Shown here one piece after another: positions 3,487 to 4,037 of a stretch of DNA of 28,641 nt. The stretch lies in the IMG/VR virus record IMGVR_UViG_2802429249_000009. One strand, 5' to 3'. Made by a program: the position numbers and the translations under genes. This DNA is from a virus (Duplodnaviria; Heunggongvirae; Uroviricota; Caudoviricetes). The number at the start of each line of letters is the position of its first letter. The first letter of the stretch is position 1. The notes under the pieces were generated by a model. That model saw nothing but the letters and a program-made list of their open reading frames with translations, did not search any database and had not been told where the DNA came from.

Positions 3487-3530
3487 TTGACATGGTTTTC
3501 TATTGAAAAAAGAATCGGCATTATTAATAT
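3487..3530 (+). promoter_or_regulatory. Candidate sigma70 promoter(s) for the tRNA pair
   Basis: TTGACA at 3487-3492 with AAGAAT about 17 nt downstream; alternatively TTGAAA at 3503-3508 with TAATAT at 3525-3530. AT-rich upstream, about 60 nt before tRNA-Thr. A CTTCGG-TT-CCGAAG palindrome (3535-3548) sits in the leader. Pattern-based only. Confidence 0.35.
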
Positions 3531-3592
3531 CCGTCTTCGGTTCCGAAGGGGATGTAAAGCGCGGTCATTTTTATTTCTCTTGAGGAACCAGT

Positions 3593-3668
3593 GCCGACTT
3601 AGCTCAGCAGGTAGAGCAACTGACTTGTAATCAGTAGGTCACTAGTTCGATTCCGGTAGTCGGCACCA
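3593..3668 (+). tRNA. tRNA-Thr (anticodon UGU), 3' CCA encoded
   Basis: Manual cloverleaf: acceptor GCCGACU/AGUCGGC, anticodon arm ACUGA-CUUGUAA-UCAGU, T-loop GTTCGATTC, terminal CCA. Near-identical, as far as I recall, to enterobacterial thrU. Confidence 0.9.
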
Positions 3669-3671
3669 TAT

Positions 3672-3746
3672 GCGGGTATCGTATAATGGCTATTACCTCA
3701 GCCTTCCAAGCTGATGATGCGGGTTCGATTCCCGCTGCCCGCTCCA
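3672..3746 (+). tRNA. tRNA-Gly (anticodon UCC), 3' CCA encoded
   Basis: Manual cloverleaf: acceptor GCGGGUA/UGCCCGC, anticodon arm UCAGC-CUUCCAA-GCUGA, T-arm GCGGG-UUCGAUU-CCCGC, discriminator U, CCA. Differs from E. coli glyT as I recall it at about one acceptor-stem base. Confidence 0.9.
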
Positions 3747-4012
3747 GAGAAACAAGCCTTATTGTATCGTGGCACTGGCGTATTTTTTATTACGTGGGGT
3801 GGGTTGTTTAAAAAAGACATTCTGTTCTCTGACTATGATTGGAGGTCGGTTGTAGTCACAGTGCTAATTTTTTACGGCAGCAGAATGGTGCATTATCGGT
3901 GGAGATTTTGTATTTCCTGGCAGGGTCGGTGATGCATCATTCTGGTGTTGTAAATAACACCATGACATTGAGATTAATCATATATTAAACAAAACCTGGA
4001 AATACATCCTTA

Positions 4013-4037
4013 ACCGCCTCTACCGGGCGGTTTTTTT
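4013..4037 (+). terminator. Rho-independent terminator after the tRNA pair
   Basis: ACCGCC (4013-4018) pairs with GGCGGT (4026-4031), followed by a run of 7 T (4031-4037). Confidence 0.55.

Follow-up and report, generated by a model that had tools for sequence, protein, structure and literature searches.

The locus described here lies in a stretch of 28,641 nucleotides (the window) from the IMG/VR virus record IMGVR_UViG_2802429249_000009, a member of the Caudoviricetes, and consists of a small tRNA module upstream of the phage lysis genes. Exactly two tRNA genes, both on the plus strand, were identified by ARAGORN in the 28.6-kb window, namely tRNA-Thr(UGU) and tRNA-Gly(UCC), which are separated by a spacer of 3 nt, TAT. 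When the whole window was searched against Rfam, these two alone reached the gathering score of any family, with 69.4 and 63.4 bits against the 29 bits of RF00005, so the two tRNAs with encoded CCA reported in an initial annotation, made from the sequence alone, are real. Around them the module holds a promoter candidate, a leader hairpin, a structured trailer RNA and a terminator (Table 1); the leader hairpin and the trailer had been missed in the initial annotation. The cassette lies in a phiP27-like lambdoid/Mu-tailed prophage, past the antiterminator gene Q and ahead of the lysis genes, and appears to be carried there as a moron.

The tRNA-Thr gene was identical to thrU of Escherichia coli K-12 at 74 of 76 positions and the tRNA-Gly gene to glyT at 74 of 75, which bears out the near-identity to the host genes suggested at the outset. 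The differences in tRNA-Thr are U16C in the D-loop and C51U, which makes the T-stem pair C51-G63 into U.G, and the one in tRNA-Gly is C6U, which turns C6-G67 into U6.G67. All three changes preserve the structure, and the anticodon stem-loops of both tRNAs were the same as those of the host in the alignment to K-12. Threonyl-tRNA synthetase recognizes its tRNA through G1-C72, C2-G71, G35 and U36, and glycyl-tRNA synthetase through G1-C72, C2-G71, G3-C70, C35, C36 and U73; all these identity positions were present on direct reading of 3593-3668 and 3672-3746.

The module was aligned over 82 distinct copies, in which the tRNA columns were 95-100% conserved, compared with about 50% for the 190 nt upstream. 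Identity to K-12 thrU at all 76 positions was observed in 57 of 121 prophage Thr copies, and this is the commonest Thr allele. Most prophage Gly copies carried the compensated pair U6-A67 in place of the host C6-G67, and the U6.G67 pair of the window is an intermediate between the two. Conservation relative to the flanks, together with the compensated pair, indicates that the tRNAs are under purifying selection.

Two overlapping promoter-like sites precede tRNA-Thr. The site TTGACA-17-AAGAAT, which had been taken as the promoter in the initial annotation, is the better consensus match in the window, yet it was the top-scoring site in only one of the 82 copies and appears to be specific to the lineage of the window. 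In most copies the best promoter-like site has a -10 element ending 61-67 nt upstream of tRNA-Thr, and TTGnnn-16-TAnnnT was present at this position in 62 of 82, with variants such as TTGAAA-16-TAATAT and TTGCGA-16-TATCAT. TTGAAA-16-TAATAT is preferred as the promoter candidate because its position was kept although the surrounding sequence was only about 50% conserved, and transcription would then start near 3537. In a scan of 3100-4700 the promoter-like sites were confined to 3258-3687.

The module is bounded by two intrinsic terminators on the plus strand, the first of which would close the upstream HsdM/HsdS unit and insulate the tRNA module from it. A terminator-like site no more than 392 nt from tRNA-Gly was found in 79 of the 82 copies. 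In 78 the terminator lay 220-400 nt past tRNA-Gly, always 3' of the trailer, and the sequence from tRNA-Gly to the trailer end was free of terminator-like sites; one further copy had its hit earlier, at +120-139 from tRNA-Gly. The terminator-proximal part of the module fell into two unrelated sequence classes among the copies. Thus, for the promoter and terminator first ascribed to the tRNA pair, the terminator was canonical and conserved (79/82), and the promoter at 3487 probably has to be replaced by the candidate at 3503-3530. The predicted primary transcript of 504 nt folded into independent modules (-171.9 kcal/mol, z = -5.6). Pairing of the leader with the trailer across the tRNAs, in the manner of an rRNA processing stem, was rejected, since the modules stayed separate in the fold of the full transcript.

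The leader hairpin begins about 2 nt past the predicted start site and ends 3 nt upstream of tRNA-Thr, and its folding energy was -19.6 kcal/mol (z = -3.2). Over 27 distinct copies 97.2% of the cells in its pairing were paired, compared with 32-77% when the partners were slid. Compensatory changes were found in 5 of 12 pairs, a number matched by none of 500 shuffles, and one pair of the outer stem was CG in 14 copies and UA in 12.

The 265 nt separating tRNA-Gly from the terminator proved to be a conserved structured RNA, not an empty spacer. Over 81 distinct copies the 210 nt 3' of tRNA-Gly were 75-89% conserved, which is above the promoter region (about 50%) and below the tRNAs. The region 3747-3958 folded with -94.5 kcal/mol (z = -4.6) on the plus strand and with -63.2 kcal/mol (z = -2.6) on the minus strand. 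Two domains were recognized in it, which together make up a trailer of about 190 nt (3770-3954). The closing helix of domain 1 (3771-3777 with 3860-3866) was 98.9% paired over 50 copies, with one CG-for-UA exchange. The helix of domain 2 has 2-3 single-base interruptions and a size that fits a substrate of RNase III (at least about 20 bp of near-continuous double-stranded RNA). Its arms are only 77% complementary as DNA, many of the pairs being G.U, and this points to an RNA on the plus strand, not to a DNA palindrome.

The domain 2 hairpin and the closing stem of domain 1 were recovered independently by RNAalifold on 50 distinct copies, over which 98.2% of the cells in the trailer pairing were paired, against 34-53% with the partners slid. 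Nine pairs had changed on both sides (0 of 500 shuffles matched this), and 17 pairs of the long helix switched between G.U and G-C or A-U; at one compensatory pair in domain 2, for example, 24 copies had AU and 17 had GC. A covariance model built on the hairpin gave 76-109 bits on the sense strand and 30-51 bits on the antisense strand at the same sites (109 and 42 bits for the hairpin of the window itself), and it matched 85 of 97 loci bearing the Thr-Gly junction. Selection on the trailer as an RNA structure is therefore well supported by the comparison of copies.

When the hairpin core was used as a query, tRNA-Gly(UCC) was found about 140 nt upstream in every copy with enough upstream DNA, and partial E. 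coli matches to the trailer likewise sat 3' of tRNA-Gly. The trailer was present at 351 places in 305 of 5,426 complete E. coli genomes (about 6%), never annotated as RNA, and in only two named phage records. In some viral contigs the main copy was preceded, at a distance of about 770 nt, by a second, weaker match to the trailer-hairpin model (35-44 bits), and others had two full copies (extra matches at L035:2163-2260, L009:2591-2687, and L073:264-358 and 1624-1714), which suggests local duplication of the cassette as in the SerU-LTIIb phage.

Several other identities of the trailer were considered and rejected. The region 3747-3965 showed neither 3-base periodicity (0.197, 0.203 and 0.169 substitutions per phase) nor a conserved frame, and a 15-codon open reading frame (ORF) at 3885 was interrupted in relatives. 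The trailer was absent from Rfam, where a search at E<=10 returned noise and one sub-threshold match, in which the AU-rich stretch and terminator at 3968-4037 resembled CyaR/RyeE with 28.8 bits (E = 0.006 in a 1-kb search). Membership in the CyaR family, whose gathering score is 47, was not accepted, and the match probably reflects the generic layout of the 3' ends of Hfq-type small RNAs (sRNAs). Domain 1 could not be taken as a decayed tRNA, such as the thrT that comes next after host glyT, since it gave no tRNA signal in Rfam and shared an 8-mer by eye only. A 12-nt complementarity between the hairpin apex (3909-3920) and 3995-4006 was dismissed as well; chance alone would yield about 0.2-0.6 matches of this kind, and the E10-type copy had not kept it.

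Table 1. Features of the tRNA module and of the genes next to it in the window
Feature	Position	Strand	Basis or score
HsdM (frame open from the window edge at position 1)	1-2103	+	Pfam N6_Mtase
HsdS	2163-3239	+	Pfam Methylase_S
Intrinsic terminator predicted to close the HsdM/HsdS unit and insulate the tRNA module	3370-3397	+	9-bp stem, 4-nt loop, T-run
Promoter-like site of the initial annotation, TTGACA-17-AAGAAT	3487-3515	+	10/12 consensus matches
Positionally conserved promoter candidate, TTGAAA-16-TAATAT	3503-3530	+	9/12 matches; overlaps the 3487-3515 site
5' leader hairpin, outer stem GGUUCC/GGAACC and inner G-rich stem	3539-3589	+	fold and covariation
tRNA-Thr(UGU), thrU-like, encoded CCA	3593-3668	+	ARAGORN; Rfam RF00005, 69.4 bits
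tRNA-Gly(UCC), glyT-like, encoded CCA	3672-3746	+	ARAGORN; Rfam RF00005, 63.4 bits
Trailer domain 1, closing stem GGCACUG/CAGUGCY around a variable multi-hairpin interior	3770-3866	+	-34.1 kcal/mol, z = -4.3
Trailer domain 2, long G.U-rich hairpin, 28 + 6 bp	3871-3954	+	-42.7 kcal/mol, z = -7.3
Intrinsic terminator of the tRNA module	4012-4037	+	8-bp stem (hairpin 4012-4032), 5-nt loop, T7 run to 4037
TerB-like gene	4410-4835	+	Pfam
DUF3927 gene	4832-4984	+	Pfam
Two holins	about 5073-5465 and 5401-5730	+	Pfam
M15 endolysin	5727-6110	+	Pfam

Upstream of the module, HsdM and HsdS were found by Pfam without HsdR beside them in the window, so the pair is an orphan type I methyltransferase, not a restriction-modification system. 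The initial placement of the tRNAs between a restriction-modification island and the lysis genes was thus right about the slot and wrong about the island. In the Stx1c prophage of E. coli 2013C-3033 a homologous HsdM/HsdS pair is found between the Q antiterminator, which it immediately follows, and stx1c. The HsdM/HsdS region (1-3239) had 33-48% GC, and 53% of its Arg codons were AGA or AGG. The frame entering the window (1-54) encodes about 2.5 copies of the tandem heptapeptide PATSDQR just upstream of the conserved HsdM N-terminus, which may be a repeat-bearing N-terminal extension or the end of an upstream gene.

Downstream, the TerB-like and DUF3927 genes separate the tRNA module from the holins, and the same gene order was observed past the module in relatives. 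The ORF of the first holin (4923-5465) is listed as 180 aa with its Phage_holin_8 domain at residues 51-174, and translation probably begins at an internal ATG near 5073, in line with the 130-aa homologues that relatives carry. The endolysin is followed by an HNH endonuclease and the small and large terminase subunits, then by genes for portal, HK97-type capsid, sheath, tape measure, Mu-type baseplate and tail fibre. The closest sequenced phage is the Shiga toxin 2e (Stx2e) phage phiP27, to which 4890-24838 of the window was 96.3% identical. GC content was 41-46% in 3201-4400, compared with 50-59% in the lysis and structural genes.

That the tRNAs belong to a host locus outside the prophage, raised in the initial annotation as a possible refutation, can be excluded, since they are flanked by HsdM/HsdS on one side and by phage lysis and structural genes on the other, with no coaA...tufB synteny; the locus is a phage-borne paralogue of thrU/glyT. 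No att-type repeat of either tRNA 3' end was found anywhere in the window, and no integrase was found near the tRNAs in the survey of its genes and domains, so that the suggestion that the tRNA region might serve as an integration target was rejected on the missing repeat. The module was also considered as a Q-utilisation or late-promoter element, an idea that was given up since it stands behind at least three Q types at variable distance and shows no co-variation with Q.

As regards its origin, the order of the cassette is colinear with the host thrU-tyrU-glyT-thrT genes. The spacer TAT is made up of the first base after host thrU (T) and the last two before host glyT (AT), so one 206-bp deletion of tyrU and spacer would yield the junction. 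About 4 of the 64 trinucleotides would fit such a single deletion by chance, and the junction is therefore suggestive of a deletion product, not proof of one. Beyond the two tRNAs, no similarity to the host thrU-tufB locus was detected in 3400-4100. In the simplest reading the cassette descended from an enterobacterial thrU-tyrU-glyT-thrT operon by loss of tyrU, and the proposed capture of part of the host operon is thus upheld by gene order, by near-identity and, suggestively, by the junction. The 20 nt upstream of K-12 glyT (L008:652-673), GGTAGCCGAGTTCCAGGAT, loosely resemble the 3' end of thrU, GGTAGTCGGCACCA, with about 12 of 19 positions matching by eye. They might be left over from an earlier Thr-Gly arrangement, or be a short repeat that favoured the deletion of tyrU, and chance could also account for them; the resemblance was too weak to be used as evidence on the origin.

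The cassette is widespread. A 701-nt query of the module gave 6,591 matching places, spread over 5,421 of the 5,426 complete E. coli genomes. Once the host operon, present once in each, is set aside, about 1,170 places are left, as many as 6 in one genome, and these are annotated plainly as tRNA-Thr and tRNA-Gly. The exact 23-nt Thr-TAT-Gly junction was present in at least 120 IMG/VR viral contigs, and annotations of the cassette number in the hundreds among prophages of Escherichia, Shigella and Citrobacter. Among species representatives the junction occurred in E. coli, Shigella flexneri, E. albertii, E. ruysiae and Citrobacter braakii. Matches of 18 nt to the junction outside the enterobacteria (Streptomyces, Nocardia and others) mostly had no tRNAs there and were discarded as chance, and a Corallococcus contig of 423 bp and 0.67x coverage bearing the junction looks like contamination. 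No record identical to the module of the window was found; the best matches were 84-93% identical.

The cassette was found with diverged flanks, following Q genes of at least three types and accompanied by several lysis cassettes, and in other prophages it is placed between Q, or a DNA methyltransferase, and the holin. Because it stands between diverged flanks in prophages of Escherichia, Shigella and Citrobacter, its capture is old and was not made by the phage of the window, and the cassette now moves between prophages as a unit. The cargo of the same slot in relatives was ileZ/argO/stx2e (phiP27), stx1c (2013C-3033) or LT-IIb (SerU-LTIIb), and the SerU-LTIIb phage carries the cassette twice, as LT-IIb-linked duplicates. 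Some copies in other prophages were decayed, with a broken acceptor end, many stem mismatches or indels.

Extended arrays were observed in the same slot of other prophages, with a tRNA(CAU) of Met- or Ile2-like type, Arg(UCU) or Lys(UUU), Thr(UGU) and Gly(UCC) (L006:3850-4159; L135-L138, L142, L147, L151, L157, L161, L163 and L167), and E. coli ECMA0423 and S. flexneri SFBU1023 had three copies each. Together these arrays cover the A-ending rare codons AUA, AGA, AAA, ACA and GGA. In the SerU-LTIIb phage a thrU scaffold (L005:1122-1197) has the anticodon UCU (Arg, AGA) and the further changes A31G and G24A, and in several viral contigs the scaffold has a UUU anticodon (Lys, AAA); L162:4835-4910 and six IMG/VR copies are among the loci with a switched anticodon. 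These look like re-anticodoned tRNAs, which suggests on-going remodelling of phage tRNA identity.

Codon usage was compared between 6,629 codons of structural genes in the window and a 50-kb core sample of K-12. ACA made up 25% of the Thr codons and GGA 21% of the Gly codons in the structural genes (16.4 per 1000 each), compared with 11% and 9% (5.1 and 6.8 per 1000) in the core sample, and with 5% and 1% in ribosomal and elongation-factor genes. ACA and ACG together accounted for 56% of Thr codons against 36% in the core, and GGA and GGG for 45% of Gly codons against 23%. The codons read by the two tRNAs were thus enriched 2-3 fold. By back-calculated counts ACA (109) and GGA (109) were the most numerous rare codons in the structural genes, followed by AGA+AGG (61) and AUA (35). 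In relatives, the tRNAs of the four-member arrays (CAU, then UCU or UUU, UGU, UCC) all decode A-ending rare codons, which also speaks for codon matching.

Comparison with known systems places the module among familiar prophage cargo. The Stx-phage cassettes (ileZ-argN-argO in the 933W/Sakai type and ileZ-argO in phiP27) occupy the same slot, past Q and a DNA methyltransferase and before the toxin or other cargo and the lysis genes, and share the logic of decoding host-rare codons. They consist of Ile2-like (CAU) and Arg (UCU/CCU) tRNAs, whereas the window has Thr(UGU) and Gly(UCC) only, and some relatives combine both sets. In phiP27 the slot holds a methylase, ileZ, argO and stx2e, which agrees with the initial remark that Stx phages carry tRNAs there; ileZ begins 40 nt after the methylase gene and leaves no room for a separate promoter region, whereas the window has at the 5' side of its cassette a 350-nt gap with the upstream terminator, the promoter candidate and the leader hairpin, and a long structured trailer. 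The host thrU-tyrU-glyT-thrT-tufB operon is similar in the tRNA bodies and their order; in the window tyrU, thrT and tufB are missing, the flanks are unrelated, and the spacer is 3 nt instead of 209 nt. Lambdoid morons also have flanking terminators, a promoter-like site of their own and a lower GC than the backbone, and are present, absent or swapped for other cargo among related phages, but their cargo is a protein-coding gene and not RNA genes. In phage T4 a tRNA cluster including Thr(UGU) and Gly(UCC) is co-transcribed with the stable structured 'species 1 and 2' RNAs of unknown function; T4 is lytic, its tRNAs have diverged from those of the host, and its cluster is organised otherwise and has no sequence relationship to the window.

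The module is best explained as an autonomous tRNA operon with its own promoter and terminator, also transcribed by Q-dependent read-through after induction, which would provide extra thrU/glyT-type tRNA for the late genes; a probability of about 0.72 is given to this reading. What the sequence analysis shows are the tRNAs and their identity to the host genes, the slot, a terminator and a promoter position that are kept across copies, the structured RNAs and the codon usage. From these the transcription, processing and aminoacylation of the tRNAs, their benefit to the phage and the role of the trailer are predicted as follows. A sigma-70 promoter, most likely that at 3503-3530, would start a transcript of about 500 nt near 3537 that ends at 4012-4037 and folds as separate modules, comprising the 5' hairpin, tRNA-Thr(UGU), tRNA-Gly(UCC), the two-domain trailer and the terminator hairpin. 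Host RNase P, RNase E and 3' exonucleases would free two mature tRNAs, which may be functionally equal to thrU and glyT, each of which the host has in one copy only and uses to read rare codons. In the lysogen the flanking terminators would limit expression to the module and leave the lysis genes silent. After induction, Q-modified polymerase coming from upstream could pass both terminators and add to the tRNA output, and the extra tRNAs would raise the decoding capacity for ACA/ACG and GGA/GGG in the late genes. The trailer would most probably act in cis as a processing or stability signal tied to the tRNAs, and after tRNA excision it would become the 5' end of the downstream lysis mRNA.

A number of observations weigh against this explanation. 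The tRNAs of the window hold two G.U replacements, and the C51U of tRNA-Thr occurred in none of 121 other copies, so these copies could be a slightly weakened allele. The consensus counts were no better than chance, since shuffled sequences gave 2.8+/-2.0 promoter-like and 1.4+/-1.1 terminator-like sites where the real sequence had 4 and 3, and the promoter and terminator calls are supported by conservation across copies and not by these counts. The 50-kb K-12 reference may not match the real host of the phage. AGA/AGG and AUA were also enriched, about 2.5-3.7 fold, so the enrichment is unspecific, and such enrichment is usual in most AT-shifted mobile DNA. The major capsid gene, the most highly expressed late gene, has no ACA and 3 GGA codons, hence the need for extra tRNA is perhaps small. 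The enrichment of ACA and GGA that the initial annotation had proposed to look for was accordingly found at 2-3 fold, but is shared with other rare codons; codon matching remains plausible and the best available explanation, short of proof. Finally, many Thr-Gly cassettes have no trailer, for example those of PhiR47_1 and phi467, and about 351 trailer sites stand against about 1,170 non-host tRNA-pair sites in E. coli, thus the trailer is not needed for tRNA function.

For the trailer itself, a role as a cis-acting processing or stability element has about an even chance, and it is favoured because the helix has the size of an RNase III substrate and the downstream mRNA would begin with the trailer once the tRNAs are cut out. 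That the trailer acts in trans, in the manner of a 3'ETS, is unlikely. The 3'ETS-leuZ of glyW-cysT-leuZ is noncoding and extends past the last tRNA up to the operon terminator, and the trailer matches it by anatomy, with its co-transcription predicted; release by tRNA-maturing processing would apply to both alike. However, 3'ETS-leuZ is an sRNA sponge of about 50 nt, largely unstructured, with RyhB and RybB as partners, and the trailer has about 290 nt with stable helices. It is rather doubtful, too, that trailer and leader form an undescribed family of phage RNA elements, obligately coupled to tRNAs, which would be either a trans-acting regulator or sponge, or an RNase III-dependent switch. 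Such a switch, if true, would decide whether read-through RNA yields stable lysis mRNA, and would couple tRNA supply, lysogenic silence and lysis timing.

A further alternative is that the trailer is the real payload and the tRNAs are processing handles that free an sRNA or sponge of about 290 nt, or a trimmed form of it, acting in trans, with the 3'ETS of glyW-cysT-leuZ and the prophage anti-sRNAs of enterohaemorrhagic E. coli (EHEC) as possible models. The 75-89% conservation of the trailer, above that of the promoter region, would fit this, as would its covariation on the plus strand only, its constant position directly 3' of tRNA-Gly with no terminator between, its end in a U-tailed terminator after an AU-rich single-stranded stretch, which is the usual Hfq-binding layout, and the weak CyaR-like match at 3968-4037 (28.8 bits against 47). 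Yet the tRNAs are far better conserved than the trailer and occur in many prophages without it, the 34-bp perfect-type helix is unlike typical seed-bearing sRNAs, no target complementarity came to light, a search for it not having been possible, and the terminator-proximal part comes in two unrelated sequence classes; altogether this alternative is quite improbable. In favour of the payload reading, the Hfq-bound short sRNAs Pas, AgvB and AsxR are known from the prophage region concerned; PasA, PasC, PasD, AgvB and AsxR are noncoding RNAs between Q and the holin of lambdoid prophages of enteropathogenic E. coli (EPEC) and EHEC, PasA being cut from a longer transcript and tRNA genes being frequent neighbours (10.64898/2026.05.13.724894; PMC8550237). 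PasA and PasC lie on the strand opposite to the late genes, unlike the trailer. Identity of the trailer with a Pas sRNA was rejected, since blastn of 3380-4420 against the PasA and PasC loci of EPEC E2348/69, located from supplementary data, gave chance 10-12-mers only. Rfam gave no match to AgvB, AsxR or the PasD-related STnc100, the last searched down to E<=10, and the lack of PasA/PasC similarity and of an STnc100/PasD-type match also counts against the trailer as payload. On the minus strand, a strong terminator at 4060-4084 (11-bp stem and T-run) stands back to back with the plus-strand terminator of the module, and 4085-4400, up to the TerB gene, is free of ORFs of at least 40 aa. The region 4060-4400 could mark a small RNA on the opposite strand, in the orientation of PasA/PasC; neither a consensus promoter nor sequence similarity to PasA/PasC was found in it.

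The tRNAs might instead be a counter-defence or insurance supply that makes up for host tRNA-Thr(UGU) and tRNA-Gly(UCC) lost during infection to cleavage, depletion or inactivation, for example through anticodon nucleases, tRNA-acetylating toxins or a general shut-off of the host, with codon usage beside the point. Phage tRNAs are known to rescue translation from tRNA-targeting defences, as in T4 and T5, and the cassette stands among defence and anti-defence cargo, with the orphan type I methyltransferase upstream and TerB downstream; the UCU/UUU-switched thrU scaffolds of relatives also point to diversifying pressure on its decoding repertoire. This explanation is very doubtful, as the anticodon stem-loops are identical to those of the host, so a nuclease recognising the host tRNA would cut the phage copies too and only dosage would help. 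To our knowledge no E. coli system targets the tRNA-Thr(UGU) and tRNA-Gly(UCC) isoacceptors, and the tRNAs of the extended arrays (AUA, AGA, AAA, ACA and GGA decoders) track rare codons and not known nuclease targets. Least probable of all is that the cassette is a neutral hitch-hiker, host DNA acquired by illegitimate recombination and retained only for being small and harmless, or that it serves mainly as a recombination or integration target. The decayed copies in other prophages would suit a hitch-hiker, and a recombination hotspot would suit the homology that often breaks exactly at the tRNA borders, the matches to phi467, 606R7 and 689R5 spanning 3582-3747 only. Against them stand the strong conservation of the tRNAs relative to the flanks, the compensated acceptor-stem change, the conserved promoter position, leader hairpin and terminator, and the spread across genera, and an integration target is further opposed by the lack of an att-type tRNA 3' repeat in the window and of an integrase nearby.

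The autonomous tRNA operon is thus preferred, and its tRNA pair is prophage cargo of an ordinary and often annotated sort. Only the leader and trailer structures are new, and the locus is not extraordinary. It adds one more case of a temperate phage with host-derived decoders of rare codons, in a slot that also holds Shiga and LT-II toxin genes and whose cargo is freely exchanged among phages closely related to phiP27, an Stx2e phage. The trailer, if it truly controls the processing of late transcripts or is a regulatory RNA, would be a new and experimentally easy handle, which could show how prophages silence the lysis genes while expressing cargo of the same region, and how tRNA-linked RNAs are matured.

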